Of a stretch of 64,000 nucleotides of DNA, positions 11,909 to 38,961 are shown piece by piece (the first letter of the stretch is position 1; every line of letters begins with the position of its first letter). A program made the translations under genes and the position numbers. This stretch comes from Methanotrichaceae archaeon (GTDB lineage: Archaea > Halobacteriota > Methanosarcinia > Methanotrichales > Methanotrichaceae), in the NCBI GenBank assembly GCA_963803145.1, contig CAWDLW010000008.1, positions 160,001-224,000 of the forward strand, read 5' to 3'. The notes beneath the pieces were generated by a model. The model ran no database searches. It was not told where the DNA came from and saw only the letters and a list, made by a program, of their open reading frames with translations.

Positions 11909-12379
11909 CTAAAACTGCTTAGATATTCTCATAATGCATCCATTTTCGGTGTTCTCACATTCCATCTTCAAGTTGAGATTAGCGAAAACCTTTCTCCAAT
12001 GGCTCTCAGCGCAAGTTTTGCAGTGCTCCTTGGCGATCAGTGTTGCCCCTATCTTGGCAAAGGATTTTGCTCCATCGACCAGTCCGCACTTAATGCGCCT
12101 GATCTCCGTAAAGTCTTCTCCCTCTATTACTTCGATATTGCTGCCGAAGAGGTTTTTATCATTGGTAGCTATCGCCAGAGCGATCTCTCCTGGCTCTGTC
12201 AAACCAAGCTTCTTGAAAGTAGCCGCCACCTGGTGCGCCCCCTGGTCTTGGAACTCGCGCAGCCCTTTTTTGCCTAGTCTGCGTGCCACATAGCCACTGC
12301 TTCCATAGAAGCTTCCCATCCACATTGCAACAACACGCTGCTGGATCTGCTCCAAGGGTATATCCGGAACATCTGTCAT
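11909..12379 (-). CDS. hypothetical protein, V4R/ATC-hydrolase-like fold
   Basis: Probable start MTDVP at 12379; helical N-terminus followed by Cys pattern C...CxxC...C. Confidence 0.6.
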   Translation of the reverse strand: MTDVPDIPLEQIQQRVVAMWMGSFYGSSGYVARRLGKKGLREFQDQGAHQVAATFKKLGLTEPGEIALAIATNDKNLFGSNIEVIEGEDFTEIRRIKCGLVDGAKSFAKIGATLIAKEHCKTCAESHWRKVFANLNLKMECENTENGCIMRISKQF

Positions 12380-19312: not shown

Positions 19313-21526
19313 GTGAATAGAATGAGGAATATATATCTGGCCATAATAAGCATATTTGCCTTATTGGCTGTTTCGATCTCCCTATTTGGATTAACTGGCG
19401 CTCAGCCGCAAGCGGATTTAGCATCAATAAATAGCAATATTATCGCTCACGCCTTAGAAAAGCCAAATAAAGAATTGCCGACGGGACAAGGCACGTGGGG
19501 CCTCGATAATCAAACTCGAACTCGAACTCAACCGAAATCTGAATCATATATCAGACCTGCAGTTCTAAACCCAAAAATCCATCCTGTACTTCCAATGCAG
19601 CCCATTGCGCCTGTGGTGATCGGCTTTGAGGATTTATCAAACGGAGACAATGTTTTCCATCAATATGCTTACCAAGGAATTGAATTCAATTATCCAAGGA
19701 TTATTGATTATTCTGAGGAAGCAGCTTCTTGGAGATATCAGGGATTTGCACATTCAGGCACAAAAGCCATTGAGCAATGCTATGGCGAAGAATTCTGTAC
19801 CAAGCCCATTCAGATGAATTTCACTGAGGGACAGAAGCACGTAAAGATCTGGGTGGGCTATTCTGATAACCTCGCTGCCCAGAAAACGGTGATAATGCGT
19901 GCTTTCGATTCGTCAGGCGAACAAGTAAACCAGACGACAGTAGTATTCCAGCCCAGCACTAGCCCTATATCTATTCATACACCTATGGAGATCACATCAG
20001 ACAGTGCAAATATCAGAAGCGTAATTGTAAATTTTGCACCTCAAAATTATGGCGAATCACAAACAAATCATCTGGCTGTTGATGATGTCGAGTTTGATTC
20101 AAGCGGACCTGCACCATTATGTAATACTACTGAAGCACCAGTCGTGACGCTCGCACAGCCGACATCTGGGCAAGTTGTAAGGAGCAATGTATTCAGTTTA
20201 CAGGGTACGGTTGTCACCACAGCTCCGCTTGAGAGCGCTACATTAATTGTAACAGGGTCAGGCGGCAGTAATTCGATGAATCTTTTAAGCGACAATACAT
20301 TCCCACGGAGTGGAGGCACTTTTAGCGTTAATGGAATCCAGGATATGTTGTCTATGGGTTCCAACTCGATTACAGTCAGAGTTCAAAATTGTGCAGGTTC
20401 TGGAGAGAGTAGTGCAACATTAAATCTTCAGCCATGTGACAGCACCACGAGTCCAACCGTAACTATAACTGAGCCTAATCCATCAAAGCCAGGTGGTACA
20501 GTCATATCTGATCAGTACTGGAAATTGACGGGCAAAATTAACTCTTCGTCTAAGATAACAAATGTTGCCGCAACTGTGACTTCGGGGCTGCCGGCAAATA
20601 CCGGTATTCATCAAATAAACAGCATCCCAACCTATGATAATTCTTTTGGGGCGATTTTAGAAAGCGGCGGTCGTGAATATCCGCCTCCTGACCAAAGTCT
20701 ACTGTGGCCAGGTCCCAATACTATTACAGTCACAGCAACAAACAGCGAGGGTTGTTCAGGCCAGGCCAGCATATCAGTAGTATTCGAAAAAAGGGTATTC
20801 AAACGCATTTCCGGAGAAAACTACTTCCAATTAGCACAAGGAGACTCCAATGACAAGTATACAGCAAAAAATGGCTACCTTTACGTCTCGCATGATCCGG
20901 GATGTGGCATATCCGGCAATAATGGGGACGATGTATTCTTTTCACCTAATAAGCTCCCGTTCTGGTGCAAACTTGTAGGCGTTGAATTTCACCAGTTCTG
21001 GCCAACAGAGAGGAGACCCGATGATTGTGGCATTGGTGCCGTGTTCGGTGCGGGCTCGTATCTTACTGAGCTCACCCACGGTAACCTCTCGAACGGTTCC
21101 AAAGTGACTGTTCATTGGGAGAATTCGTGCTGCGGCAGATATTCAGGAAAGAACATCGAATACGTGATAAGCTTCATCGTCTCCGTACCAGAAGACTTGA
21201 CGGGATTAGCACTCGGCGAACCTCTATTCAATCTTACGGAAACTCCCGCAAATTCGATTCAGCCACCTAACGGATTTGGCTTATACGAACAGCCCGCACC
21301 CACTGAATCTTCTAATCCAAATCCGCCTGCGATACAGGAACAATGGTTCTTCTTCCAAATGACCAATCCTCAGAGTTGGGTGAAACCATGCTTCCCAATA
21401 GCTGAGCTCGCTCCTGATGAACCAACAGCGGCGAGTATGGCAGAAGCAGAGAATCAACCCTATAAAGCAGAACCAATTAGCTACGAGACGTATTTGCAGG
21501 ATACTACTAATAATGAGTGTACCTGA
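19313..21526 (+). CDS. large secreted protein with Ig-like repeats
   Basis: Signal peptide; IGFEDL domain; two P-x-V-T-[LI]...G-x-N-[ST]-I-T-V repeats; paired Cys. Confidence 0.8.
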   Translation: MNRMRNIYLAIISIFALLAVSISLFGLTGAQPQADLASINSNIIAHALEKPNKELPTGQGTWGLDNQTRTRTQPKSESYIRPAVLNPKIHPVLPMQPIAPVVIGFEDLSNGDNVFHQYAYQGIEFNYPRIIDYSEEAASWRYQGFAHSGTKAIEQCYGEEFCTKPIQMNFTEGQKHVKIWVGYSDNLAAQKTVIMRAFDSSGEQVNQTTVVFQPSTSPISIHTPMEITSDSANIRSVIVNFAPQNYGESQTNHLAVDDVEFDSSGPAPLCNTTEAPVVTLAQPTSGQVVRSNVFSLQGTVVTTAPLESATLIVTGSGGSNSMNLLSDNTFPRSGGTFSVNGIQDMLSMGSNSITVRVQNCAGSGESSATLNLQPCDSTTSPTVTITEPNPSKPGGTVISDQYWKLTGKINSSSKITNVAATVTSGLPANTGIHQINSIPTYDNSFGAILESGGREYPPPDQSLLWPGPNTITVTATNSEGCSGQASISVVFEKRVFKRISGENYFQLAQGDSNDKYTAKNGYLYVSHDPGCGISGNNGDDVFFSPNKLPFWCKLVGVEFHQFWPTERRPDDCGIGAVFGAGSYLTELTHGNLSNGSKVTVHWENSCCGRYSGKNIEYVISFIVSVPEDLTGLALGEPLFNLTETPANSIQPPNGFGLYEQPAPTESSNPNPPAIQEQWFFFQMTNPQSWVKPCFPIAELAPDEPTAASMAEAENQPYKAEPISYETYLQDTTNNECT

Positions 21527-21539
21527 TGAGATATGAATT

Positions 21540-22583
21540 GTGGAGGGTTTGAATAGTATGTGGTTAGTAAGTGACCATAATAAGCAGAGTATTATAATAT
21601 TATCAGCAATATTTATAATACTCTGCTTGTGTCTGATACCCGTCTTTTGTCTTGAAGACAACACTGATCGTCCAGGTGGCGATTACAAGAAATACGATAT
21701 GACCACTCCTGATCCAAGCTTGTGTCAACAGTATTGTGCAGCAGATCCTGACTGCCAGGCTTTCACTTATGTCAAGCCAGGAATCCAGGGACCTTATTCC
21801 AGTTGCTATCTGAAGAATACCGTGCCTCCTGCAAAATCAGACAGCTGCTGTCTATCCGGCACGAAGACCGCTCAAACAAGCGGATCGCCAGTTCCATTTA
21901 GTACTATGGATTATTCATCTATTCCTGGCCTTGTTTTGCATTTATGGCATAACATGAACCAGCCTGATCCACAATTAGATTCAAACAGATCCGATTTGAT
22001 ATTTTTGCACGGAGGAGATCTTGGGGCCCCTCAGGATTGTGGGTATAGCTGGTGGATGATTCCCGATAATCAAAATGCAGATCCGATGAAATGGAGTACT
22101 CAGCTTCCACCTGGATTAGTTCTATGTCTCAGGCATTCTTCAAACCAGGCGAACGATAACCGGATTACAGTTGGCGGTCAGAACCCCGTTGAAGGTCCAG
22201 ATACATTTGGTGGCCTTGTAAAGCAAAACGGAGGCGATAGAGATGGATCGGAGGGTGAAGGCTACTACTGGTATGAAACTTTTAATCCCAATTTTCAAAA
22301 CTGGGATGACGCAGAAAAAACTTTGCCTAAGGGAACGATCCTAGGTCTGAAGCATTCTATGAACCAGCCAGATAAGACTGTATACTGGCGCGGCCAGGAA
22401 TACGATCCAGTCAAGTGTTTCAGGAGTGCACAAGAGTATCCGTCCCCGCCAACTTTCGCTCCAAGACATGGAGGTGACCGTGGCACTCCCTCTGGTGAAG
22501 GTTACTACTGGTTTGAGAAAGTGGATGGGCCTGATTATTTCAAGCCAGGACCTGCAAGCGGGCCAATATGCGGCGAAGCGTAG
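21540..22583 (+). CDS. secreted PAN/apple-domain protein with three internal repeats
   Basis: DNTDRPGGDY...CQQYCAADPDCQAFTYVKPG...CYLK is PAN-like; three copies of LP.G.[VI]L.L.H..NQ and GGD.....G.GY.W. Confidence 0.82.
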   Translation: MEGLNSMWLVSDHNKQSIIILSAIFIILCLCLIPVFCLEDNTDRPGGDYKKYDMTTPDPSLCQQYCAADPDCQAFTYVKPGIQGPYSSCYLKNTVPPAKSDSCCLSGTKTAQTSGSPVPFSTMDYSSIPGLVLHLWHNMNQPDPQLDSNRSDLIFLHGGDLGAPQDCGYSWWMIPDNQNADPMKWSTQLPPGLVLCLRHSSNQANDNRITVGGQNPVEGPDTFGGLVKQNGGDRDGSEGEGYYWYETFNPNFQNWDDAEKTLPKGTILGLKHSMNQPDKTVYWRGQEYDPVKCFRSAQEYPSPPTFAPRHGGDRGTPSGEGYYWFEKVDGPDYFKPGPASGPICGEA

Positions 22584-25938: not shown

Positions 25939-26430
25939 TGTAATTTATCCCCTCAAATACATTCGGCAACGAATATCGGATTGCGTTTTGGAAGCTGTTG
26001 CGATATTCATGCTGTATTACCCCCACCCATTATATATCGCTAACTTTTTTAATTAACTCATGTCAATAAGACTATTTAAAATTTGTGCTCATATAAACGG
26101 TTTAGACTTCTGAAAAAGCTAAAATAAATATAAATAGTAGCACTATATCCATGTATTATAGACAGATTACTATACATCCTTCGAATTATCCTTCAGTATA
26201 GTCCTAAGAATAATAGCATGAATATATATAATTAGGCATGCTGCTTTTACTTAAAAGCACAAAGGCTACGGTTAAATCATAAAAAATTTTTAACTACTAA
26301 TTTATCGTAATCCCCTCTGCTTGCGGCCATGTGGCTTCATTCAGCATAGCTGAAGCTATAACGAACGTATTAGTGTACGACAGATCCTACTTGGTGACCC
26401 TGCTGGTATCCGGATCTTAGCGTTCCTGTG

Positions 26431-26461
26431 ATGAAGGGGAGATCTCTAAATCTCCCTTCAT
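26431..26461 (-). terminator. hairpin just downstream of the Cys-rich gene
   Basis: atgaaggggagat-ctctaa-atctcccttcat inverted repeat about 11 bp after the stop. Confidence 0.5.
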
Positions 26462-26472
26462 GCTATCCAAGA

Positions 26473-27390
26473 TCAGTATGCTGTAGCCTTCGAGGACTGG
26501 TCATCAGCTGCAGACTTGGCACAAGTATCGCAGCTCCCAGTAGTGCTCTTGCCCAAATCATTGTTTATATTTATCTTAGCACAGCTTGGGCAGAGTGCAT
26601 CAGTGGGTTTATTTGTATACTCGTAGCAGTACTTATCGCAGTAAACGTAGCAGCATTTATCTAATATAATCTTCTGGTGTGTAGTTTCGCTGTATCCATC
26701 AAAGTAATGGGTATATCCGCACTTATCGCATTTCTCAACGTAGATGAGCGGTGTACCGTCCGTGGGGCAGTTCATGGTGCCATCTGCAGGGTACTTAGCA
26801 TTGCATTTGGGGCAATATGCGTAAGCTTCGCAAGGGTCACCACATTTATCACAAGTGCCGTCACAATAGTGTTTCTCGCCAGTACTTGGATCGAAATCGT
26901 AGATCATGCATTTGAGATAGCAGTTCTCAACGCAATTGTTGTATTCACATGGCTGGCCACACTTATCGCAATTGCCATCGAAAATATGTGTCCAGCCGCA
27001 TTTATCGCACTTCTCGCTTGTATAGCAGGGGCTTCCGCAAAACTTGCAAATGCCAGGCTGATCGTCGCCCTTAAGCTCGTAGGTTATACCGCACTTGGGA
27101 CAATAATTGTACATAGTGCACTTTCCGCCATCATTGGGGCAGATGCCATTATCATAATATACTTTGCCGTACTCAGTACAGTTTGGATTCGTACACTTCT
27201 CATAGGGATAAGTTTTCTCCCAGGAGTTACTGCTATATTTGCTCATGTCTCCTGCCGAAGTCGTTGAAGTTTGCATGCATTGTCCTGTTGCACAGTTATC
27301 ACTTTTTGCTGTTGAATAGCTATCGGAGATTGCCATAGAACAGCCCATAAATATTGCTGCTAGAAGCAATATAATTAAAGCAATTCTCAT
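26473..27390 (-). CDS. secreted Cys-rich tandem-CxxC protein A
   Basis: Signal peptide; about 37 Cys in 305 aa (hand count); repeated CDKCG / CPKC / FDG.C units. Confidence 0.82.
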   Translation of the reverse strand: MRIALIILLLAAIFMGCSMAISDSYSTAKSDNCATGQCMQTSTTSAGDMSKYSSNSWEKTYPYEKCTNPNCTEYGKVYYDNGICPNDGGKCTMYNYCPKCGITYELKGDDQPGICKFCGSPCYTSEKCDKCGWTHIFDGNCDKCGQPCEYNNCVENCYLKCMIYDFDPSTGEKHYCDGTCDKCGDPCEAYAYCPKCNAKYPADGTMNCPTDGTPLIYVEKCDKCGYTHYFDGYSETTHQKIILDKCCYVYCDKYCYEYTNKPTDALCPSCAKININNDLGKSTTGSCDTCAKSAADDQSSKATAY

Positions 27391-27668
27391 AACATAGCCT
27401 TTCCATATTTGATATTATTTAGAAATGTAACTGATTATATTTAATGTTCCACTATATTTTGATTAGTAGTGTTAATAGTAACATAATATACTATATTTAG
27501 GCACCTAAAGATTGATACTAATAGCTATGCGTCAATGAATCGTAGATTGATCCTGATAGCCTCGTCATATTGCCCTATTCTTCAAGAGTCACCATTCACA
27601 ATGCAACAGTACAGCTGTGATTATATGAAGGATATATTGGGTTTGGATATTGCTAACATACTTTTGCT

Positions 27669-28172
27669 CTATAACTTGGCTGTCTTCACTATATGCTCAT
27701 TTAAGGTTTCGTTTTTGAACGAGGCGACGATTTCAACACAGGTTGTAAAATTATCATTCTTTAAATCTAGAGGTGCAATGACGCCCCAAAGCGCTTGGCT
27801 TCCAAGACGATCTTGCCCTGTCGTGATATATCCATTTCCATAAGGCTGATCAGATATCCTATCGCACATTGCTCCCATAATGCTATCTAGCTCCGTTTCC
27901 AGATCGCTGATAGGGCGAAGACTATCGTGGCCAATTAGATATGCAAAACTTGAGCTGTTCGTATTACGATCTACCATCTTTATATAATGCGTTAATACTC
28001 CGGTGCAATCCTGGTAATCCGGTGCCATTGGTATAACGGCGATGTTTTGTCCTCCGAAGTCCAGGGAGATATTGTGGCTGCCAAGTGGTATAATCTGATA
28101 GCTGCCTAGCGCTGGAGTTACGACCGCCACAATCACAAGCGCCGAGGCAATTATTAATAGATGAGTATTCAT
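27669..28172 (-). CDS. secreted hypothetical protein
   Basis: Signal peptide; LGSHNISLDFG start resembles 51504-52085. Confidence 0.7.
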   Translation of the reverse strand: MNTHLLIIASALVIVAVVTPALGSYQIIPLGSHNISLDFGGQNIAVIPMAPDYQDCTGVLTHYIKMVDRNTNSSSFAYLIGHDSLRPISDLETELDSIMGAMCDRISDQPYGNGYITTGQDRLGSQALWGVIAPLDLKNDNFTTCVEIVASFKNETLNEHIVKTAKL

Positions 28173-28221
28173 CCACCCCTAATTGCATAACGATTAATTA
28201 AAAGGTAACGCTCGCTGTTCT

Positions 28222-29163
28222 TCACTGGTAATGACCACCTGCATACTGAATAACTAATCCCGCTAAGACACTTATCCCAAACAATAGAAGCAAAATCCTC
28301 AATACGTCTCTCTTGTCCTTTTCTTCTCTAAGTAAGACTAACAATCCCAAACCGCTACTAGCACAGAGCCCAGCAATCACTGAACCATAAGAAATGGCAC
28401 CTTTGAGATACAACACCGTTATTGCGACGGATGCAGCACAATTTGGAATAAGTCCAACTAACGCCACCAGGAATGGTTGGAGAAAACCGTAACCTAAGAA
28501 CAATTTACCGAATGCTTCTTCACCCATCTGGGAAATGATGAAATTTATTGCAAATGAAACACCAAAAATAAAAGCAAAAACCTTGGCGGTATGGATTATT
28601 GGGTGAAGGATAATCTCTTTGGGACTAAATTTTATTGAGGAAGGGCTTGCGCTGTGGCCGCAGCAAGCTTTTTCTTCCAAGATTGTTTCGTGATGATGAC
28701 CTTCATCATCGGAACCTTCTGAATATGCCTTAACATGGGCTAAAGTCTTTTTATTTGATGATCTAAAAGCGAAATCAACAGTATATCCACCGATTAGAGC
28801 AATAATGATTTTTGTCAGGATCAAAGGCACGACGATTTCAGCCTTCTCTGGATCTGAAAGAATTACTGGAATAGCCTCATCTGAAGTGGATAGATAAACA
28901 GCAAGCAAAGTGCCAATTGTGGCTAGCCTTTGCGTGTAGAGAACCGAGGCGACAACTGATATGCCACACTGAGGGAAACTACCTGCTACCGCTCCAATAG
29001 CAGGTCCAGCTGCACCAGCCTTTTGCACCATTTCCCTTATCTTGTTTGCGTATTTATATTCAAATAACTCGATCCCAATATAAATAATAAGAAGCAGTGG
29101 AATCATTTTTGCGCTATCTGTTAAAGCGTCTAAGAAAATATCAGAAAGAGAATCTATTCCCAT
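28222..29163 (-). CDS. putative manganese/divalent-metal transporter (DUF2899-like)
   Basis: PQCG, GTLLAVYLSTSDEAIP, GLIPNCAASV; His/Cys loop GHHHE...CCGH. Confidence 0.85.
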   Translation of the reverse strand: MGIDSLSDIFLDALTDSAKMIPLLLIIYIGIELFEYKYANKIREMVQKAGAAGPAIGAVAGSFPQCGISVVASVLYTQRLATIGTLLAVYLSTSDEAIPVILSDPEKAEIVVPLILTKIIIALIGGYTVDFAFRSSNKKTLAHVKAYSEGSDDEGHHHETILEEKACCGHSASPSSIKFSPKEIILHPIIHTAKVFAFIFGVSFAINFIISQMGEEAFGKLFLGYGFLQPFLVALVGLIPNCAASVAITVLYLKGAISYGSVIAGLCASSGLGLLVLLREEKDKRDVLRILLLLFGISVLAGLVIQYAGGHYQ

Positions 29164-29262
29164 CTTGATGGCCCTACCTAGGAAATTGCACTTAGCTTCC
29201 GGTGAGAAGGAAGATCGATCTTAATCTGCTTGATGGTTCTGCCATTCGTAAGCCCCCTGGAA

Positions 29263-29535
29263 TTATATCTTAAATCTGGTATATAGAAATGCGCATATTA
29301 TAATCAGGGCTGAAGCAATGATTACGTAGGCTACAGGGTTGCCTTCGATATTAAATCCAAATACGCCAGATGGACCTTCTTCCTCTGAATCAGCATGGAT
29401 TCCCACTGCATTGTTAAACCTCTCCTCAATACCCATGTGGCCCGAGATCACATATGCAGCTATGCTCAAGGCTAAAAAGACGAGGATCAGTCCACCAAAT
29501 ATTATGAATCCCCTTTTATCGATTACCTTAGACAT
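29263..29535 (-). CDS. CbiN/NikN-like small accessory membrane protein
   Basis: Two TM helices with an acidic loop; overlaps the cbiM stop. Confidence 0.7.
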   Translation of the reverse strand: MSKVIDKRGFIIFGGLILVFLALSIAAYVISGHMGIEERFNNAVGIHADSEEEGPSGVFGFNIEGNPVAYVIIASALIIICAFLYTRFKI

Positions 29536-30184
29536 CGGTTTTCATCCCCGGAAGCATATCCGGCCTCATTCTCTCGATATAGGATACAGCATAGCCAGTG
29601 ATTATCGCCTCTATTACAGCTACACCCATGTTGACTCCTGCCAGAAGCGAGAGTCCATAGAGCATATCCGTGCGGCTCTGAGTTACTCCCTGAATGCCTG
29701 AGATCAATATCACAGCGATCATGGTTATGTTTCCCAGGAATAGGCCGACAAGTGTGGCGGCGCCTGCCCTTGCAAAGGTACTCACCTTTGTTTTGCCGAT
29801 CCATTTGTAGGTGCCAAACGCAGCAGAGACCTCAGTCATATTGACCAGGACATTCGCACCAATCATGCCCCATCCGCCATGCCCAATGGCGGCAGATAAT
29901 ATGTTCACTATGAATACGATAATGCCCCCGACTGCCGGTCCCCCCAAGATGCCTATAAGAGGCGTGAGATTCATGTGAACGCCACCGAACAAAGGAATGT
30001 TAACTTGAAAGATAGCGAATGAGGCTGCAGTACACATCGCGGCAATAGTTATGGTCTTGCTATCGATTCCATTCCCTCTCCTCATCCAATACAGGCATAG
30101 TCCGATCAGAACTATAGCGAGGATCCACCATACGGAGATCCATTGCAGCGTGAAGGCGCCGTCTTCTAGATGTATATGAGCCAT
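29528..30184 (-). CDS. cbiM: ECF transporter S component, CbiM/NikM family
   Basis: N-terminal MAHIHLEDG; GGVH, GHGG, GANVL, EAIITG motifs. Confidence 0.85.
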   Translation of the reverse strand: MAHIHLEDGAFTLQWISVWWILAIVLIGLCLYWMRRGNGIDSKTITIAAMCTAASFAIFQVNIPLFGGVHMNLTPLIGILGGPAVGGIIVFIVNILSAAIGHGGWGMIGANVLVNMTEVSAAFGTYKWIGKTKVSTFARAGAATLVGLFLGNITMIAVILISGIQGVTQSRTDMLYGLSLLAGVNMGVAVIEAIITGYAVSYIERMRPDMLPGMKTDV

Positions 30185-30250
30185 TGATATGACATCCTCA
30201 TACGTTTATGCGAATCATCGTTGAGATTGCCTGATCATTGCCACCGTGGT

Positions 30251-30304
30251 ATTTAAAACTTGGTGTCATACCAAACAAGTTGGTAGATGACCAAAAGTTT
30301 AAAT
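30251..30304. promoter_or_regulatory. tandem TTGG-N7-CCAA operator pair upstream of cbiM
   Basis: ttggtgtcataccaa 30260-30274 and ttggtagatgaccaa 30280-30294, inside a larger inverted repeat. Confidence 0.7.
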
Positions 30305-30370
30305 AATCGCAAACATACTGGCAGGTAGTACTAAAATGGAAAGAAATATAATAATTGTTGGAGGGCGACA

Positions 30371-30676
30371 ATGAGAAAGTTAATAATATTCTGCTTAGTC
30401 CTTTTGCTATTGGCGTTGGATTGCAAGGCGACAGCACCAGTACAACTCAGTGGAATTGGTGGCAAGACTATTTTGGCGCAGGTAGCCAGCACGAATATAA
30501 CTAATCAAATAACCAAAGTGTCTGCTGCTGATATCTGGAGCTGGGGCAAGATTCCGCTAAACTATGCATTGAATGGATCGGGAAAAATATTCGAGATACC
30601 ACCGATAGACGACGATAATGTGTGGTTGGGGGCCATATCTCAAGAGTTAGCGTTAAACACAAGTGTGTATACATAA
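30371..30676 (+). CDS. small secreted hypothetical protein
   Basis: Signal peptide; SD ggagg; IWSWGKIP motif. Confidence 0.7.
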   Translation: MRKLIIFCLVLLLLALDCKATAPVQLSGIGGKTILAQVASTNITNQITKVSAADIWSWGKIPLNYALNGSGKIFEIPPIDDDNVWLGAISQELALNTSVYT

Positions 30677-30946
30677 GCGTAATTAAGATCGCTATATTTG
30701 ATGTGGCAAGACAGCAAAGCCAGTACCAATCGAGTAATCTTATTGATAGGTAGGAGTTCCAGCCCAAGGCCATGGTCTGGAGCTCGGCTATTTATCCTTG
30801 CCTGTCTGAGGAGTTGTAGGTCTAGCTCAGGATTACTTTGCGTCATATGTGATATAATCAAGTTCTTATCACCTTAGCCTATTTAAATCCAGTATATCCG
30901 CGATCCCTTTAAGGTGATTTGACTTAGAGCCGTATTAAAAGATAAA

Positions 30947-30963
30947 TTTGGCATCAAACCAAA
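30947..30963. promoter_or_regulatory. TTTGG-N7-CCAAA site
   Basis: tttggcatcaaaccaaa. Confidence 0.55.
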
Positions 30964-30995
30964 ATTAGGCGTATGTATCTATCCGCATCTTTAGT

Positions 30996-31898
30996 TCATG
31001 CTTTGGCAAGGCATCCTACCAGCTCCTCTATGGTTACAGGTCTGCCACCCAGCTTCATTCCCCTGCTTTTGCAAAACTCCTCGTAAATTTGAGCAATCTT
31101 TGGCTTTCTTAGACCTGCCTCTGCAAGGAGTTTGGCATCGTAAAAAATCTCCGAGGGGCTGCCTTCAGCTATAATAGATCCGTCTTTTACGATGCATATG
31201 CGATCGGCAATACGTGCTGCGAGATCAAGGTCATGGGTAGCAATGACTGCGCTTATACCGAATTTATTCTTTAATTCAGTTATTATGTTTTCAACTATCT
31301 CGGCATGTCTGGGATCCAGGTCAGATGTAGGTTCATCCAGTGCCATGATTTTGGGCTTCATGGCCAATATGCCTGCTATGGAGACCAGTCTCTTCTGTCC
31401 GCCGCTGAGATAGTTGGGCATCTTGTTTACGAGCTCCTCTGCACCTACGGCACTTAGAGATTCCAAGGCTACAATTCTCGCATCCTCCTTGCTCATACCC
31501 AGATTGAGCGGCCCAAACATCACGTCATCCAGCACAGTAGGTGCAAAAAGCTGATCATCAGCTCTCTGAAATACTATGCCTACATCTTTCCACAGCTCTT
31601 TTTTGGTCCTAACATCGACCTTTTTGCCCATGATATATATATCGCCTTTCGACGGCAGGAGAAGGCCGTTCAAATGCTCCAAGAGCGTGGATTTACCAGA
31701 TCCATTGGCTCCACAAATCGCGATTATCTCATGCTCTCTGATCCTGAAACATAGATTATGGATTCCAATGCTGTTGTCAGGATAGATATGGCTTACACAA
31801 TCTATATGTATCAGCTCATGAGGCTCAGGGCAAGCATGATCCGGAGCTGGGTCAACATGATCAGTATCTTTTCTATCATCCATGAATTGTAAACTCAC
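30996..31898 (-). CDS. cbiO: ECF transporter ATPase
   Basis: GANGSGKST, QLFAPTV.DDV.FGP, LSGGQK, LDEPT. Confidence 0.92.
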   Translation of the reverse strand: MSLQFMDDRKDTDHVDPAPDHACPEPHELIHIDCVSHIYPDNSIGIHNLCFRIREHEIIAICGANGSGKSTLLEHLNGLLLPSKGDIYIMGKKVDVRTKKELWKDVGIVFQRADDQLFAPTVLDDVMFGPLNLGMSKEDARIVALESLSAVGAEELVNKMPNYLSGGQKRLVSIAGILAMKPKIMALDEPTSDLDPRHAEIVENIITELKNKFGISAVIATHDLDLAARIADRICIVKDGSIIAEGSPSEIFYDAKLLAEAGLRKPKIAQIYEEFCKSRGMKLGGRPVTIEELVGCLAKA

Positions 31899-31905
31899 CC
31901 CTAAA

Positions 31906-32709
31906 TTAATGAATTATTACAAGCAGATAAGCTGCTATGGAGAACGCCATCAGCAGAATGACATAGTCTCTTAGTACCATTGGCTGAACATCTGTTGCTG
32001 CAATATATGTTCCATTATATCCCCTTGACTCCATTGCTTTGCTCACCCTCTCTGCCCGATCGTAAGATCTGATAAAAACAAGCGCAAAGATCTCTGCAAA
32101 GGTCCGGCTCTGCCTTCTCATGCTCTTTATAAACCCTCCACCCCTCGATTTAAAGGCCCTGATGATGGAGTCCACCATGCTCAATGTTACAAAGAGGAAC
32201 CTATAGGACATCAGAAATATCTGGTCTATCGGAGAAGGAAATATCCTGTAAATCATAGTCGAAAGATGGGCATACCTCGTAGTCATGAGTAGCAGGAGAG
32301 AAGCGGTCATGGATATCAGAGCTTTCAATAGAAGCCTTATCACCAGCAATAAGCCCTTATCCGTCAGGGTCAAAGATAACCAAGAGGTATGCAAAGAAAT
32401 CAACTGTATGCCAGGCTCATTCCATATCAATAGAATGACGAGAGATAAAACAAACAAAACCGGCAAAAGATACCAGTTAAATAAGTTTTTCAGAGGTAGG
32501 CCAGAGCGCCAATACAATGCCAGTATGGAAATATACAAAGCTGCTAGCAGAACAACGTTTTGGGCGGTGGTCAAGACTAGAATAGTGGCAATGAGTGCTA
32601 TTAGCTTCATCCAAGGGCTGGTCTTGGAGAGCAATGAACGGCCATTCTCACTGTAATAGGTAATGAGATCAAGATCTGGGATATGGCCTGATGCTTGTGA
32701 TTTGCTCAT
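31906..32709 (-). CDS. cbiQ: ECF transporter T component
   Basis: YRFLF, KSRGG, RSYDRAERVSKAMESRGY; ATG at 32709 preferred. Confidence 0.88.
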   Translation of the reverse strand: MSKSQASGHIPDLDLITYYSENGRSLLSKTSPWMKLIALIATILVLTTAQNVVLLAALYISILALYWRSGLPLKNLFNWYLLPVLFVLSLVILLIWNEPGIQLISLHTSWLSLTLTDKGLLLVIRLLLKALISMTASLLLLMTTRYAHLSTMIYRIFPSPIDQIFLMSYRFLFVTLSMVDSIIRAFKSRGGGFIKSMRRQSRTFAEIFALVFIRSYDRAERVSKAMESRGYNGTYIAATDVQPMVLRDYVILLMAFSIAAYLLVIIH

Positions 32710-32741
32710 GGGTAATCGTATATGTTTAAGATAAATCTCCT

Positions 32742-33176
32742 CTAATCTCCAGCAGGACAGCAGCAACAGGTGTCATGGTGTATCTTTCCGCATACGCCCA
32801 TAGTAGGATGCCCCAAAGAGGCACACATTTTATCTATCACGTCTTTGGGCACATATCCTTCGAACTTAGAGGCAGTTTCGCAGGCCTCATTGCTCGATAG
32901 CCCGTAACGGCTCAATATCAGGCCGAGGATTCTATGTCGCCTAACCAGAAACTCAGCGTAATCTCTTCCATGCTCGGTTAAAGTTATTCCTCTATATGGT
33001 ATATGCAATATCAAGCCAGTAGTGGCTAATTCGTTGATGCTCTTGGTTATCGTTGAAGGGTCAACTTTAAACCAAGAAGATATATCCGTGGTCTTTACAG
33101 GCCCCCTCTGTTCCAGGATATACTTCAAATACTCGTTCTTTTTGGGTGAAAGTTCTAACCCGGTGATATCCTTCAT
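32742..33176 (-). CDS. DtxR/MntR-family metal-dependent repressor
   Basis: EYLKYI, PYRGITLTEHG, RRHRIL; C-terminal HHDTCCCC. Confidence 0.9.
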   Translation of the reverse strand: MKDITGLELSPKKNEYLKYILEQRGPVKTTDISSWFKVDPSTITKSINELATTGLILHIPYRGITLTEHGRDYAEFLVRRHRILGLILSRYGLSSNEACETASKFEGYVPKDVIDKMCASLGHPTMGVCGKIHHDTCCCCPAGD

Positions 33177-33210
33177 AACTTGTCATGTTTATCCAGGGCC
33201 TTAAATAACT

Positions 33211-33227
33211 TTTGGGTATATGCCAAA
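33211..33227. promoter_or_regulatory. TTTGG-N7-CCAAA site upstream of dtxR-cbiQO
   Basis: tttgggtatatgccaaa next to a TATA-like ttatttaa. Confidence 0.65.
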
Positions 33228-33380
33228 TTTTGAGGATATATTATGAGCCGTACCAAAGAGCAATTTTCTTGCGATTCCATCATCTGCTTTGGTGGCTACA
33301 TCTAATGGATCGGCCTTGACAATCTCAGTCATAACTGAAGAAACTATTTATAGAAATCATAAGCAATAATACGTTATTGG

Positions 33381-33899
33381 GTGATATCAACGAGTGTTAA
33401 GTTTATTATGATTTTGATAGCGCTGACTATATTATATATGCCAGTATTAGGGCAAGAAAACACAGCTGATTACTGGAACAATAATGGTGTAAATCTTTCT
33501 AGAGCAGGTCAATACAATGAGGCTCTTGCAGCATTTGATAAGGCCATCGAACTAAACAAATCATATGTTCAAGCCTGGAGCAACAAAGGAAACGCTTTGA
33601 ATGAATTAGGCAAGCACGATGATGCCATTAATGCATATGATAATGCTATCAAAATAAATCCCGAATATGATGCAGCATGGTATAATAAAGGCTTGACTCT
33701 TGACGCTATCGGCAAGCACGACGAAGCTGTCAATGCATATGATAATGCAATCAAGATAAATCCGGAATATGCAGAAGCCTGGTACCACAAAGGCATTGCT
33801 CTCCTAGTACTAGGTCGCTTCACCGAGTCAAAGGATGCATTCGCTAAAGCCCAGAATCTAGGATATACAGAGCTACCTCCTGTGAACGAATCCGCTTGA
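33381..33899 (+). CDS. secreted TPR protein
   Basis: Signal peptide; four AW.NKG-type TPR repeats. Confidence 0.9.
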   Translation: MISTSVKFIMILIALTILYMPVLGQENTADYWNNNGVNLSRAGQYNEALAAFDKAIELNKSYVQAWSNKGNALNELGKHDDAINAYDNAIKINPEYDAAWYNKGLTLDAIGKHDEAVNAYDNAIKINPEYAEAWYHKGIALLVLGRFTESKDAFAKAQNLGYTELPPVNESA

Positions 33900-34109
33900 T
33901 AATTGTTTATTGCGAGCATACATAAACTCGAAACAACTGAACATTCCTGAAGCAACTGCAGTGAACTATCGCGTCCTGAATGGATATGGAGATTGGCAGT
34001 CCTTTTTGGATTGCTAGCTACTTAAGGGTTATAAAATCGTAAATTGGCAAAAACGTCACCGGTAGGTGCAGTCTTTGCCTGATTAGTTGTTGGAACGATT
34101 GCGTTTATT

Positions 34110-34820
34110 CTAGTATGCAGAGTAGCCCGTTTGGCCGTCCATCGTGTAGCCGCCGTAGTTCGAATTGCAGGGCATCATGCTCTTGCATTTCTCATCGGGC
34201 TTCTTTTCCATGGGCTTCTTCTCTTCTACCTTCTTCTCCTCCGGCTTCTTTACTTCTAACTGTACCTCTGCGGGTTTCTTCTCTTCTACCTTCTTGTTAT
34301 CCTCGCAAACAACTACACACTGCTTCTCTTCCTTCTCGAAAGTCATTGGCTGTTCAGATTCGCAGCATACGGTAACGCACTTCTCGCATTCCCTGTTGAA
34401 ATTGCACTTCTCGCCGCATTTATCGCAGTTTCCATCAAAGTAGTGCGAGTAGCCGCATGCATCGCACATCTCCCAGCCATAGCAATCTGATCCGCAAGTA
34501 TCACAGCGTCCATCTGGATTATCTGTGGCGTATGTCTTATGGCACTTGGGGCAATACTCATATGCGTGGCACTTTTCTCCACATTTGTCGCATTTCCCGT
34601 CGAATGTATACTTCTCATTACATTTATCGCAGGATTCTACAACGCAACATTTCTCGTTGGTCTTATCTTTACACGTATCTTGGGAATAGCTTGCGCCCGA
34701 TGAATGTGAATTATCGCTCGAGCCGGATGCGTACGAATTGTCCTGTGTGCCGTATTGGGCTGACGCAAAAGATACCATGGCTGCCACTGATATCAGCAGC
34801 AAAATCAATATTTTCTTCAC
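34110..34820 (-). CDS. secreted Cys-rich tandem-CxxC protein B
   Basis: Signal peptide; about 26 Cys (hand count); same FDG.CDKCG..C..Y.YCPKC units as protein A; EEKKP-rich tail. Confidence 0.82.
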   Translation of the reverse strand: MKKILILLLISVAAMVSFASAQYGTQDNSYASGSSDNSHSSGASYSQDTCKDKTNEKCCVVESCDKCNEKYTFDGKCDKCGEKCHAYEYCPKCHKTYATDNPDGRCDTCGSDCYGWEMCDACGYSHYFDGNCDKCGEKCNFNRECEKCVTVCCESEQPMTFEKEEKQCVVVCEDNKKVEEKKPAEVQLEVKKPEEKKVEEKKPMEKKPDEKCKSMMPCNSNYGGYTMDGQTGYSAY

Positions 34821-35129
34821 GTTTTACATACCTCAAAGGTTTTTGGTATATAATCGTAAACCAATGAATTAAAAACTATAGTAATATTAAATTAGTATTC
34901 TAATTAAAATCTATCGCTCCTTATTAAAATTACTTATATAGTTTATTAAAAAGTCGTTAATATTAAAAATCTATCTTCGAAATATGGTTATTGACACCGG
35001 ATAGAGTATTTCTCGGCCTCTTCCTGTAGTTTTATATATCGTTTTCATATTTGTCTGGTAGACTATCCTTGTCTTGCTTGCGCCACTTACACAAATTATG
35101 ATCGGATTTGTTGTCTCTATGTATCACGT

Positions 35130-35176: not shown

Positions 35177-35875
35177 GTGATGCCCAAAGAACAGGTTGAA
35201 GAGTATATCGAGGCGATCTTTGATATTGCCGGAAAGGATGGCACAGCCAAAACTCTGGAAGTTGCAAAGAGGCTTAACAACGCCCCAGCAAGTGTGACCG
35301 AAGTATTCCAGAGCATGGCTCAGAACGGCCTTGTGCAATACGAGCCATACAAGGGCGTATCTCTAACAGAGAAAGGTACCGAAGCTGCGATGAAGATCAA
35401 AAGAAAGCATAGGCTCCTCGAAGTATTTTTGACAGAGATATTACACATAGACCCCGAGAAAGTCCATGACGAAGCATGCAAGATGGAACACTGCATCTCT
35501 GATGATGTTGGCGATGCCATTTGCAAGATGCTTGACGCTCCCGCCAGATGCCCCAGTGGAAAGCCGATTTACCTTTGTGAAAAAGGAATAGAGACCTGTA
35601 ACGAGTGCAACAAGGTGGCAGAAAAAGACAAGCTTGTCCATAGGGCGGTTCTGCCCATAACCGACTTAAAACCCTGTCAAAAAGGAATCATAGCCTTTCT
35701 TAGAGGAGGCCGAAAAGCAATTCAGAGGCTTTCGGACCTCGGCCTCACACCCGGAACTGAGGTAACTCTGTTAAGGAAGACGCCCTTACGGGGACCCATT
35801 GAACTGTCGGTGAGGAGGACGTCACTAGCGGTAGGACACGACATCGCTGACAATATCTTTGTTGAGGCCACATGA
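35177..35875 (+). CDS. DtxR-family repressor with C-terminal FeoA domain
   Basis: EEYIEAI, RKHRLLEVFL, EACKMEH, RLSDLGLTPG. Confidence 0.93.
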   Translation: MMPKEQVEEYIEAIFDIAGKDGTAKTLEVAKRLNNAPASVTEVFQSMAQNGLVQYEPYKGVSLTEKGTEAAMKIKRKHRLLEVFLTEILHIDPEKVHDEACKMEHCISDDVGDAICKMLDAPARCPSGKPIYLCEKGIETCNECNKVAEKDKLVHRAVLPITDLKPCQKGIIAFLRGGRKAIQRLSDLGLTPGTEVTLLRKTPLRGPIELSVRRTSLAVGHDIADNIFVEAT

Positions 35876-37857
35876 GTAAGGCCGAGGTGCCAGTCTTCAC
35901 GAGCTGCACATCTTCTCAGAGCTTGAAAAAAGATGTAAAAGATATAGATCTCACTGTGGCTCTTGCCGGCAACGCCAATGTGGGAAAGAGCGCGGTATTC
36001 AACCAGCTGACAGGTGTTGACCAGATCATAGGCAACTGGCCAGGAAAGACCGTCGAACGGGCAGAGGGAATGCTTGCCCATAAAGGATTAAAAATCAAGA
36101 TCATAGACCTGCCGGGGATCTACTCCTTCTCAACCTACTCAATGGAAGAGATGGTTTCAAGGGATTTTATCGCCCTGGAGAAGCCGGATATTGTGGTCAA
36201 CGTCGTGGATGCATCGGCTCTCGAGAGAAACCTGTTCTTTACAATCCAGCTTCTTGAGCTGAATGCTAACATGATAATCGCCCTCAACCAGATAGATCTC
36301 ATGGAGAAGAAAGGGATCTCCATAGATTACGATAAGCTGGGTGAGCTTTTGAAAGTTCCTGTTGTTCCAACGGTTGCAATAAAGGGAAAAGGCATTTCAG
36401 AGCTGACTGAACAGATAGTGAAGCTGGCTCGGGAAAGAAGAGCCCCTCCGGAGATCAAATATGGGAGAGAAGTAGAGCAGAGAATAAAGAAGCTTTCAGT
36501 TTTACTCGAAAAAGTCGAGATCAATTATCCTCGCAGGTGGCTGGCCATAAAGCTTCTTGAAAGGGACGAGGAAATCACGAAACTCGTCAAAGGGCTCGAT
36601 GGAAGCATCGTCCAAGCTGCAGTGACCCTGGCAGAGGAGATCGAGAAGATCCATGGAGAACCCAGCAGTGTGGTCATAAGTGCCGAACGATACAAAATTG
36701 CAGACGAGATCGCAATAGCGGTTCAGAAGATCCATACCGAAGAGGAATCGCTGACAGACAAGCTTGATAGAATTGCGTTGCATCCAGTCCTTGGATATTT
36801 GGTGATATTAGCAGTAATAGGCGGCCTATTAATATGGACATTCATTATTGGAGATGGGATCTCCAGAGTTCTCGCAGACGTATTCAGCTCCATAGAGCAG
36901 TATGAGCCTGTTATCTCAGGTCCACTCGGAGATATCATCTGGAATGGGGCCTTCACAGGCTTTGTTGCAGGCATAACTCTCATCGTTCCATATGTGCTGC
37001 CATTCTACATCATACTGGCAGCAATCGAGGATTCAGGTTACCTGACCAGGATATCCCTCATGCTTGACAGGGGAATGCATAAGCTGGGGCTGCACGGCAA
37101 AGCGATTATCCCCATGATCCTGGGATACGGATGCAACGTGCCTGCTTGCTTCTCCTGCAGGATAATGGAGACCCCAAAACAGAAGCTTTTGGCAGCATTT
37201 CTAGTTACTCTGGTACCATGCACTGCCAGAACTGTGGTAATCTTAGGATTAGTGGCAAAATTCGTCAGCGTTTGGTGGGCTATGGCATTATATGTTTTCG
37301 ATATAGCCCTCATCATTCTCCTGGGAAGGGTTGCGTTCAAGATTGTACCTGGAGAATCGGTCGGCCTTATCATGGAGATGCCAAGCTATCATACCCCGTC
37401 AGCGAAAGTTGTGCTGAAGCAGACCTGGGCCCGGACGAAATCGCTCATATGGGTAGTCTTCCCTGCATATATCATCGGCAGCGCAGCGCTTCAGGCTTTT
37501 TATGCTGCAGGATGGCTGAATCCGATTAATGAGGTCTTGAGCCCGGTTACAGTGGGATGGCTGGGGCTTCCGGCTGCTGTAGGCATCCTGCTCATATTCG
37601 GTGTGGTAAGAAAGGAGCTAACAATCCTGATGCTGGCAGTGATATTTCAGACAACGAACTTTGGGTCCGTCATGTCTCCAGTGCAACTGATAGTCCTCGC
37701 ACTTGTGTCAATGATTTACATTCCCTGCCTGGCTATGATCCTCAGCCTCGCAAGAGAGTTCGGATGGAAGAAGGCGTCAGCAATCGCCGTCTTTGAGGTG
37801 GTATTTGCAATCTTCCTTGGCGGGATCATGTTTCGTTTGTTAAGCTTAATTATTTAG
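35872..37857 (+). CDS. feoB: ferrous iron transporter B
   Basis: GNANVGKS, GNWPGKTVE, DLPG, EDSGY, GYGCNVPA, YIPC. Confidence 0.96.
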   Translation: MSKAEVPVFTSCTSSQSLKKDVKDIDLTVALAGNANVGKSAVFNQLTGVDQIIGNWPGKTVERAEGMLAHKGLKIKIIDLPGIYSFSTYSMEEMVSRDFIALEKPDIVVNVVDASALERNLFFTIQLLELNANMIIALNQIDLMEKKGISIDYDKLGELLKVPVVPTVAIKGKGISELTEQIVKLARERRAPPEIKYGREVEQRIKKLSVLLEKVEINYPRRWLAIKLLERDEEITKLVKGLDGSIVQAAVTLAEEIEKIHGEPSSVVISAERYKIADEIAIAVQKIHTEEESLTDKLDRIALHPVLGYLVILAVIGGLLIWTFIIGDGISRVLADVFSSIEQYEPVISGPLGDIIWNGAFTGFVAGITLIVPYVLPFYIILAAIEDSGYLTRISLMLDRGMHKLGLHGKAIIPMILGYGCNVPACFSCRIMETPKQKLLAAFLVTLVPCTARTVVILGLVAKFVSVWWAMALYVFDIALIILLGRVAFKIVPGESVGLIMEMPSYHTPSAKVVLKQTWARTKSLIWVVFPAYIIGSAALQAFYAAGWLNPINEVLSPVTVGWLGLPAAVGILLIFGVVRKELTILMLAVIFQTTNFGSVMSPVQLIVLALVSMIYIPCLAMILSLAREFGWKKASAIAVFEVVFAIFLGGIMFRLLSLII

Positions 37858-38064: not shown

Positions 38065-38961
38065 TTAATATGTTGCTGCTATAGTTGTACTATTATCCAG
38101 GGGCTGATTATCAATCCAATTCTGCCATGAATAAAGCAAGGCATCATAACCCAAGAGCTTCAATGAAAACCATACTACAGATGCCTTGACACCAGTATCT
38201 GTGAACACAACTACTGGTCGGTCTTTACTCAGGTTGATAAATGCTTTTTCTAAGCCCGTTTCGTTTTTAATTTTGTGACCATCGAGCACATTATCATAGG
38301 GTATACTGATGGCTCCGGGTATTGAACCTGCTTCGAATTCTTCAGGAAGTCTTGCATCTACAATCTGGGCCTTGTCGTCTTTTACGTATTCGTATGTGGC
38401 AAAGAGATCCGTTGTGAGATTCGGCGTGTAGTTTGTGCTTGGCCTGATTGCGGATTCGTTGGATGTTGGACCTCCTGCTGCGGCCCAATCCTCCACGGTT
38501 CCATCAAGCACCCTTATGTCCTTCTGTCCTAGACACTTCATCATCCAATAGATGTAAGTCGCAGGTGCAGGTCCGCCGCCGCATGCGAGGCACTCACCGT
38601 ATACTACAACTTTGTCATTACTTGATATTCCCGCATTTCCCAAGATCTGGGCGACCTCGGGCACTGATTTCAGAAGCCCTCCGCCAAGGATGAATTCCGT
38701 ATAGGGAATGACTACTGAGCCCTTTATATGCTTTGTAGAGTTCTGGCTGATATCAAACAGTACATCTGAGTTCGAGACATCGGAGATGGGTAGAAGCATT
38801 TTCTCGAACTTATCGCTTCTATCGGATGTGATATTGCCCTTGTCAAAATTCCCTATAAGATAACTCTCATTTTGGAAATGTGTGCCGCATACCAGAACAG
38901 TCAACGCTAGGAGCAATACGAATATGCCCAACAGCCAATACTGTAGCTTAGTCGGTTTCAT
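38065..38961 (-). CDS. tandem rhodanese-domain protein, N-terminally anchored or secreted
   Basis: HIKGSV, VVVYG, LDG, IVDAR...GSIPGAI; hydrophobic N-terminus. Confidence 0.85.
   Translation of the reverse strand: MKPTKLQYWLLGIFVLLLALTVLVCGTHFQNESYLIGNFDKGNITSDRSDKFEKMLLPISDVSNSDVLFDISQNSTKHIKGSVVIPYTEFILGGGLLKSVPEVAQILGNAGISSNDKVVVYGECLACGGGPAPATYIYWMMKCLGQKDIRVLDGTVEDWAAAGGPTSNESAIRPSTNYTPNLTTDLFATYEYVKDDKAQIVDARLPEEFEAGSIPGAISIPYDNVLDGHKIKNETGLEKAFINLSKDRPVVVFTDTGVKASVVWFSLKLLGYDALLYSWQNWIDNQPLDNSTTIAATY

Follow-up and report, generated by a model that had tools for sequence, protein, structure and literature searches.

Here we describe a small family of cysteine-rich, exported proteins that is represented by two minus-strand genes, A (26473-27390) and B (34110-34820), in a 64,000-nucleotide stretch of a Methanotrichaceae archaeon genome (contig CAWDLW010000008.1). 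The whole of this stretch is called the window, and coordinates refer to it unless another source is named. The family is undescribed: a known module, resembling the zinc ribbon, is found in an unusual compartment and an unusual architecture. Full-length members have so far been found only in the Methanotrichaceae. They are not consistently linked to metal-transport genes, and the juxtaposition of A and B with such genes in the window is a lineage-specific rearrangement. The reading that we favour, with a confidence somewhat above even, is that A and B are strings of metal-clamped zinc-ribbon beads that are exported and form part of the envelope, sheath or extracellular matrix.

Exported paralogues with a three-ribbon domain

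An earlier note on this DNA had described two secreted proteins with runs of CxxC motifs and proposed that they form an undescribed exported family. Both open reading frames (ORFs) were found where it had placed them, and its counts of 37 cysteines in A and 26 in B are exact. The two proteins share 34% identity over 174 residues (BLASTP E 4e-22) and are paralogues, as had been claimed. A genome-wide search (4.13 Mb, 51 contigs) returned A and B as the sole members of the family in the source genome. The GTG start of B is preceded by a GAGGT Shine-Dalgarno-like site.

The repeat module has the form CxxC-x(8-15)-CxxCG-xx-C and occurs in three types: X (C..CGEKH.CDG.CDKCGEKC), Y (YCP.C...Y......C..CG..C) and Z (CDKCGY.HYFDGYCD.CG.KC). 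Three modules make up a fixed domain of ~85 residues, present once in B and twice in A, and each A domain aligns full-length to the B domain (E values in Table 1). A runs from a signal peptide through an S/T-rich segment, the two three-ribbon domains and a Cys-rich cap to a low-complexity tail ending in KATAY. In B, the signal peptide is followed by an S/G-rich segment, a single three-ribbon domain, the Cys cap, a K/E/P-rich linker and a tail ending in GYSAY. The cap, which lies between the three-ribbon domains and the low-complexity tail, reads CCY..CDKYCYEY..KC..CP.C. The number of units put forward earlier, about six in A (some of them CPxDG variants) and three in B, agrees with the six unit positions and three units that we find. 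Two of the six positions in A carry all four knuckle cysteines (Cys4), two are Cys3Asp (CPNDG, CPTDG) and two have a single knuckle. In the second domain of A, unit 4 is without its first knuckle, unit 5 is Cys3Asp (CPTDG) and unit 6 is without its second knuckle. The arrangement of the Cys motifs goes far beyond composition, as CxxCG occurs six times in A vs 0.34 in shuffled sequences and four times in B vs 0.21, and none of 5000 shuffles reached the observed number.

A and B are predicted to be Sec-exported proteins without a membrane anchor. The export rule that we applied is a crude heuristic of our own (K/R, a hydrophobic core of at least 12 residues and no later membrane helix); it accepts the signal peptides noted earlier for A and B and 27 of the 29 aligned members in all, the two exceptions looking N-terminally cut. 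No later membrane helix or Tat motif was found in the 29 members. The mature proteins are acidic (isoelectric point 4.8-5.0) and rich in Tyr, with 21 Tyr in the 189 residues of the core of A. In an AlphaFold2 (AF2) model of A, based on a 12-sequence alignment, residues 62-250 are predicted as beta-hairpins (predicted local distance difference test, pLDDT, ~80-90) and the tails as disordered. Both proteins do end in AY, as the earlier note had pointed out, but this is a weak feature: Y is the last residue in 8 of the 29 aligned members, and genome-wide a C-terminal Y is found in 25 of 499 signal-peptide-like ORFs vs 98 of 3469 others (odds ratio 1.8, p 0.012). With an enrichment of 1.8-fold, a C-terminal AY sorting signal was rejected as weak.

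The lines of evidence on what the modules are, weak as they are, all point to zinc ribbons. Therefore, we class the modules, on grounds of similarity, as divergent zinc ribbons outside every curated family, in agreement with the paired CxxC, zinc-ribbon-like units of the earlier note. Two CxxC knuckles ~8-20 residues apart on beta-hairpin turns, the arrangement that defines a zinc ribbon, are seen in both the sequence and the AF2 model. Compared with PDB sequences, the family profile matched the Zn modules of PolD DP2, YfgJ and the MetRS knuckle weakly (E 0.02-0.95). The top rows from Foldseek were PolD DP2, Pirh2 CHY, MetRS and Rpb9, and those from VIA, a fold search independent of Foldseek, were the ribbons of ZPR1, TFIIS, NrdR and Rpb9, for residues 175-231 only (Z 2.7-4.3). 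Of the 16 scanned hits in the weak tail of the family profile (the tail below E 1e-16), 14 carry Pfam DZR/Zn_Ribbon. Counting against the assignment, structural matches are all weak (Foldseek E≥0.03, VIA Z≤4.3), and Pfam and NCBIfam scans of A and B gave no usable family at E≤1, zinc-ribbon models included. At 97.5% probability, hhalign pairs the knuckles of the family core with those of the DZR segments, but the test is not independent, the segments having been preselected by the family profile, and Cys-rich composition inflates such scores. The sole Pfam/NCBIfam rows for A and B, argininosuccinate synthase (E 0.063) and AimP (E 0.022), were discarded as chance-level, and the ESM Atlas gave no usable match for A.

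Like A and B, proteins with the Pfam domains DZR (PF12773), Zn_Ribbon_1 (PF13240) and Zn_ribbon_3 (PF13248) have paired CxxC...CxxCG knuckles on beta-hairpins, often in tandem. To our knowledge zinc ribbons are cytoplasmic modules; A and B differ in their predicted export, a conserved fifth Cys, the fixed three-ribbon domain, the Cys-rich cap and conserved aromatic/Asp-Gly spacers (GY.HYFDG). The best match, though weak, is archaeal PolD DP2 (PDB 6hms, 5ijl, 6t8h, 9f29), which has two adjacent Cys4 knuckle pairs in ~50-70 residues. Unlike A and B, DP2 is cytoplasmic and its modules lie within a 1200-aa enzyme, and the matches, at E 0.02-0.1 only, show no homology beyond the knuckles. The Pirh2 CHY/CTCHY arrays (PDB 7ynx, 2dkt) are consecutive small Cys-rich zinc sites that appeared among the Foldseek rows, but with a probability of 0.11-0.18 and a root-mean-square deviation of ~14 Å there is effectively no fold match, and Pirh2 is eukaryotic and cytoplasmic. 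Rubredoxin has CxxCG knuckles followed by aromatic residues; in comparison A and B have a much shorter inter-knuckle spacer, tandem units and Sec export, and neither matches Pfam rubredoxin at E≤1. Membership of the c-type cytochromes was rejected, as conserved CxxCH heme-attachment motifs were not found: B has a single CPKCH, and the same column of the 29-member alignment holds N, G, K or other residues elsewhere (CPKCN in A).

Below, G000 is the source genome, G004, G019 and G026 are relatives, L-numbers denote places, that is, family matches in the genomes of relatives, and P-numbers denote aligned members. A word-indexed search of 5.8 billion proteins returned 10 clusters, all unnamed or named 'hypothetical protein'. 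An exhaustive profile search of 1.84 billion representative proteins returned 53 at E≤1e-3 and 23 at E≤1e-10; one of the 23, the 1744-aa repeat protein P0031, looks unlike a family member. Within the same taxonomic family, 17 of 101 genomes contain a match (source genome included), distributed by genus as 2/2, 8/55, 1/2, 1/1, 1/1, 2/2 and 1/1, with none in nine further genera (36 genomes). In a phylum-wide sample of 401 genomes, full-length matches were confined to the Methanotrichaceae, and outside it only ribbon stretches of ~55 residues were found, inside ORFs of 570-700 aa (E 1e-6 to 1e-8). A related-locus search with B alone matched two G004-like contigs only. A 1988 paper cited in PMC3282944 reportedly deals with nickel adsorption by Methanothrix concilii. 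Among the papers listed by a full-text literature search none describes the family, and it goes unmentioned in the accessible parts of PMC10470525, PMC6962339 and PMC3282944. The novelty proposed in the earlier note thus stands: there is no match to a characterised Pfam or NCBIfam family at E≤1, the database names are 'hypothetical protein' and no describing paper was among those listed by the full-text search.

Neighbourhoods of the family and a local rearrangement

In the window, the minus strand reads MntR-like DtxR, CbiQ, energy-coupling factor (ECF) ATPase, a gap, CbiM, CbiN-like protein, permease, the secreted protein sec167, a 278-nt AT-rich gap and A. The gene next downstream of B encodes a secreted TPR protein, and a dtxR-feoA fusion and feoB diverge from B on the other side. 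This arrangement is as the earlier note had claimed. Its 'Mn transporter' label is unsupported, because the permease falls into ArsP_2 in Pfam, scores 300 bits with the NCBIfam family 'arsenic efflux protein' and is not a recognised Mn transporter. The note had gone on to propose that A and B act as an extracellular metal sponge or metallophore for the adjacent importers, and had suggested that synteny with feoB, cbiM and dtxR be checked. In the form considered here, such a sponge or metallochaperone would capture Fe, Co, Ni or Mn on behalf of Feo and CbiMNQO.

We examined neighbourhoods of up to ±10 kb, or to the contig ends, around all 24 other matching places in 16 other genomes, by tblastn with the 18 neighbouring proteins of the window and by a Pfam scan of 247 of the 260 flanking ORFs. 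The 13 ORFs omitted from the scan were known TPR or 259-aa family genes (see below) or came from L037, a short contig of G004 that tblastn had matched beforehand. A cbi/dtxR block beside an A-like gene was found at one of the 24 places, L023 in G019, which is of the same genus and the closest relative (proteins ~85-95% identical). The A-like gene there (L023 9816-10157) ends after about residue 98, inside the second ribbon, and is probably a pseudogene that arose by deletion. At the other 23 places no homologue of FeoB, DtxR, CbiM or ArsP was found, and the only other metal-flavoured neighbours were NikR ~5 kb off (L025) and a P-type cation ATPase ~3 kb off (L035). The two-domain (A-type) genes of five genera instead adjoin a histidyl-tRNA synthetase (HisRS) and/or DUF131 gene (L021, L022, L024, L025, L028); in the source genome the slot beside HisRS is empty. 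The synteny is thus not conserved, and the homologues are largely unlinked to metal genes. A secreted TPR protein was tried as a conserved partner and rejected: it occurs within ~2 kb in 5 of the 24 places, but the genome has ~83 TPR places (~8% by chance). The TPR gene near B lies within the inserted block described next.

The juxtaposition of A and B with metal genes is a lineage-specific rearrangement of 7.9-9 kb. In G004, of the same genus, the TM154 gene is the immediate neighbour of a B-like gene (84% nucleotide identity), and therefore 26098-34032 is an insertion relative to G004. The block holds A, sec167, the ArsP-like permease, the cbiN-like gene, cbiM, cbiO, cbiQ, the MntR-like dtxR and the secreted TPR gene; its ends are the paralogues A and B, in the same orientation, and no transposase was seen inside. 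Upstream of the dtxR-feoA-feoB genes of G004, other genes take up 8.5 kb, and a B-like gene is missing there. In G019, TrkA-RlmJ-TM154 lies directly beside dtxR-feoA-feoB-rhodanese with no A, B or cbi genes between, window positions 26090-35128 being replaced by 516 nt (blastn), and in G026 the neighbourhood is similar, A, B and the cbi genes likewise not lying in between. The block A-sec167-cbiNM-cbiOQ-dtxR is found at a different chromosomal place in G019, so A travelled as a unit with the cbi genes in one lineage. The coupling is not essential, because the A copy in G019 is decaying.

Regulatory motifs do not tie A or B to this block. The motif TTTGG-N7-CCAAA, a candidate operator of the 144-aa DtxR-family repressor, has four intergenic copies in the cbi/dtxR block (six in the window vs 2.2 expected) and is conserved in position between G000 and G019, and the motif search of the window found none upstream of A or B. 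A perfect palindrome upstream of A, TTTAGGCACCTAAA, was rejected as a shared DtxR-type operator: with up to two mismatches it has two matches in the window vs 3.1 expected, and it is not kept in G019, where the A-like gene is itself broken. Between B and dtxR-feoA (34868-34975) there are six TTTTAAT-like words ~15-24 nt apart, which may be phased TATA-like boxes or plain AT-richness. The linkage at one of 24 places with a truncated gene, the lineage-specific rearrangement and the missing operator speak together against a role in serving the adjacent importers.

Metal clamps, disulfides and the envelope

The Cys columns of the 29-member alignment (A2) were read one by one. In the three-ribbon core, each of the 12 knuckle columns either is invariant or has its Cys in no fewer than 26 of the 29 members. 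Where a single knuckle Cys is replaced, the substitute is exclusively Asp or Glu and always in a CPxD/E(G)-type context (C2 to D in P0006 and P0014, C4 to D in A, C4 to E in P0003, and CPNDG in unit 1 of A and P0004). Such swaps fit ligand exchange at a metal site but not the loss of half a disulfide. The fifth Cys of the units is dispensable, being present in 20-24 of the 29 members. In P0021, P0029, P0026 and P0019 it is lost across several units at once together with the cap Cys, and therefore the fifth and cap cysteines form a separate set from the knuckles, which may make either disulfides or an additional site. Totals of cysteines are odd in 4 of 12 members.

An envelope location is suggested by the neighbours in another genus. 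In the genus with most genomes, the family gene lies immediately behind the gene of a secreted 259-aa protein, at a distance of 40-95 nt and in the same orientation. This arrangement occurs at eight places that fall into three wider contexts (M48 peptidase-PspAB...FEN1-Dph2; aminotransferase...DUF255 thioredoxin-like; UvrB). Genomes of that genus carry 4-5 copies of the 259-aa family each, and the source genome carries at least 10; with these copy numbers adjacency by chance is very improbable, and the two genes move together as a cassette. The AF2 model of the 259-aa protein has six long beta-strand elements and helices (pLDDT 63). The parts of PMC11576556 available to us describe the Methanothrix sheath (SH) proteins, of which Mthe_0667 and Mthe_0668 are named, as multi-copy, with a signal peptide and a beta core with variable extra domains. 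The 259-aa family fits this description and may be the SH family. Its members, of ~260 aa, have no Pfam model and are predicted to form long beta-hairpins. PPVQYEQFC is conserved near the N-terminus and C.GIDC near the C-terminus, and fusion to extra domains gives some copies of 552 and 632 aa; the members include L032 8839-9615 and its equivalents and, in G000, C25:101081-101872, C26:90692-91501, C15:160784-161662 and others. In the source genome no 259-aa family gene was found near A or B, and no general pairing of these genes with Cys-rich genes was seen.

On the reading that we favour, A and B would leave the cell as unfolded chains and enter reduced, sulfidic surroundings, where each ribbon would close round one thiophilic divalent ion, most likely Zn2+ and possibly Fe2+, Ni2+ or Co2+. 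The ion would be held by four knuckle Cys or, in two units of A, by Cys3Asp. The product would be a compact, acidic, Tyr-rich string of metal-clamped beads between disordered low-complexity tails. Most likely it would belong to the cell envelope, the sheath or the extracellular matrix and would need bound metal to keep its fold, and any buffering of metal would be a by-product. Several observations weigh against this reading. With export by Sec, the proteins would have to acquire their metal extracellularly; the Asp/Glu swaps are only 3-4 independent events; and the loss of whole knuckles in pairs in A and P0003 would fit intra-knuckle disulfides too. The envelope role would draw on gene neighbourhood in another genus, and for the 259-aa neighbour Foldseek gave no PDB match at E≤0.001 and the ESM Atlas gave scores of at most 0.83. 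Moreover, the ~10-kb stretch with A and B holds the only feoB and cbiM matches of the genome and both of its dtxR paralogues.

Further points on the same side lead to the nearest alternative, that A and B are disulfide-knotted envelope repeat proteins without metal, their CxxC pairs being oxidised outside the cell. Dicty_CTDC and Stig1 are disulfide-bonded extracellular repeats of eukaryotes. Besides A and B, the source genome has no fewer than 15 signal-peptide proteins with 10-18% Cys and unrelated repeats (CPTGxxC, NCGxCG, TCxxTC), of up to 978 aa and 101 Cys (among them C20:144144-145259, C27:92807-94006, C20:151005-152195, C26:10941-12581, C43:33067-34482, C49:6387-9323 and C15:247343-249460), and one of the six that were scanned matches Dicty_CTDC and Stig1 in Pfam. 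Like A and B, these proteins of the genome are exported, repetitive and above 10% Cys; unlike A and B, they lack paired CxxC knuckles, and in sequence they show no similarity to A or B. Delivery of unfolded chains by Sec and five Cys per unit would also suit disulfides. The accessible parts of PMC11576556 and PMC10593813 propose disulfide links in methanogen sheaths and report thiol-exchange proteins in Methanotrichales. Against disulfides stand the single replacements by Asp or Glu only, which are metal ligands, the odd Cys totals, the closest sequence and fold neighbours, which are all metal-binding zinc ribbons, and a habitat that is presumably strongly reducing. We rank metal-clamped ribbons, which we hold to be slightly likelier than not, above an all-disulfide build, which we regard as unlikely.

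The metal sponge of the earlier note appears more doubtful still, and A and B probably do not exist specifically to supply the transporters beside them. Both paralogues do sit with the metal genes just mentioned, A has moved together with the cbi block, and Cys4 sites can bind Fe, Co and Ni. All of this has to be set against the comparative data given above: the single truncated neighbour of a cbi/dtxR block, the 23 places without FeoB, DtxR, CbiM or ArsP, the HisRS/DUF131 setting in five genera, the TM154 and dtxR-feoA-feoB neighbours without A or B in G019 and G026, the insertion relative to G004 and the operator that is absent upstream of A and B. Very tight Cys4 sites would, moreover, be poor donors to a transporter. 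The ArsP-like permease two genes upstream would suit a different role for A, in which the protein traps toxic metals or metalloids of a thiophilic kind (As, Cd, Cu) outside the cell, since the permease, sec167 and A follow in order on one strand, the NCBIfam cut-off is passed threefold (300 bits vs 100) and thiolates bind As(III) and Cd. This we consider very improbable: in G019 the permease is missing although sec167 and the A-like gene are there, no such permease lies near any other family member and the AT-rich gap between A and sec167 suggests that A has its own promoter. We would give equally little credence to a heme-free conduit for direct interspecies electron transfer (DIET) made of rubredoxin-like Fe(Cys)4 centres, in which Fe-binding three-ribbon beads in a Tyr-rich scaffold would form a path for extracellular electron uptake or a cell-surface redox buffer. 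The CxxCG knuckles and the CxxCGY.HY stretch are reminiscent of rubredoxin, and the core is Tyr-rich; however, the knuckle spacing of 8-16 residues compares with ~29 in rubredoxin, and Pfam rubredoxin is not matched. In the search of 101 genomes of the taxonomic family, 84 gave no match, the two half-sites in A would break the chain and the G019 copy is truncated. In the parts of PMC10470525 available to us, Methanothrix is without surface multiheme cytochromes and its electron-uptake route is open, but the DIET transcriptome names other surface proteins.

Features of the window and wider meaning

The features are collected in Table 1. No Rfam family was found in the window at the gathering threshold. 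Beside feoB, 38065-38961 encodes an exported or membrane-anchored double-rhodanese protein ending in ...ATY, and the feoB-rhodanese adjacency is kept in G019. Two further secreted proteins lie upstream in the window, one of 347 aa with a PAN/apple domain (21540-22583; PAN_4, E 1.6e-18), which is unusual in archaea, and one of 737 aa without a family (19313-21526).

Table 1. Positions of genes A and B, their parts and neighbouring elements (window coordinates; L023 coordinates in the last line)
Feature	Position	Strand	Details and basis
Gene A	26473..27390	-	305 aa, 37 Cys, ATG start, predicted exported
A, predicted Sec-type signal peptide, residues ~1-20, MRIALIILLLAAIFMGCSMA	27331..27390	-	sequence, heuristic rule, AF2 helix 3-15 then disorder
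A, three-ribbon domain 1, residues ~62-150	26941..27207	-	unit 1 Cys3Asp (CPNDG), units 2 and 3 Cys4; pLDDT ~75-85; E 1e-22 to B domain
A, three-ribbon domain 2, residues ~160-245	26656..26913	-	pLDDT ~80-90; E 3e-19 to B domain
A, C-terminal Cys-rich cap, CCYVYCDKYCYEY ... CPSC ... CDTC	26521..26655	-	sequence; low model confidence
Gene B	34110..34820	-	236 aa, 26 Cys, GTG start, predicted exported
B, three-ribbon domain, residues ~58-140	34401..34649	-	three complete CxxC...CxxCG-xx-C units; sequence
15/30-nt tandem repeat encoding the K/E/P-rich linker of B	34212..34295	-	sequence
Block missing between B-like gene and TM154 gene in G004	26098..34032		blastn breakpoints; 7.9 kb
Perfect palindrome TTTAGGCACCTAAA	27496..27509		106 nt upstream of the ATG of A, abuts a TATA-like stretch; unique in window
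sec167, secreted 167-aa protein without family	27669..28172	-	neighbour of A kept in G019; ORF, scans, tblastn
ArsP_2 / 'arsenic efflux protein' permease ('Mn transporter' of the earlier note)	28222..29163	-	NCBIfam 300 bits, cut-off 100
cbiM (218 aa) and 90-aa CbiN-like gene, ECF S-component pair	29263..30184	-	family scans
MntR-like DtxR (144 aa), CbiQ, ECF ATPase	30996..33176	-	family scans
dtxR-feoA fusion and feoB, divergent from B	35177..37857	+	family scan
TTTGG-N7-CCAAA copies	30259-30275, 30279-30295, 30947-30963, 33211-33227		two upstream of cbiM, one after the ATPase gene, one upstream of dtxR
TTTGG-N7-CCAAA at matching positions in G019 (L023)	11929-11945, 12210-12226, 14462-14478		motif search

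The metal genes around A and B reflect a recent rearrangement, and this setting cannot be extended to the family at large; the electron-conduit idea is a long shot. If the metal-clamped reading is true, a Sec-exported family that is built only of zinc ribbons and confined to one strictly anaerobic methanogen family would fold outside the cell with metal thiolates, instead of disulfides, as its clamps. Such an arrangement would be sensible only where the habitat is permanently reduced. Methanothrix is one of the major producers of methane worldwide, and little is understood of its envelope, its handling of trace metals or its uptake of electrons; a new class of surface metal-binding proteins would offer a useful handle on them.

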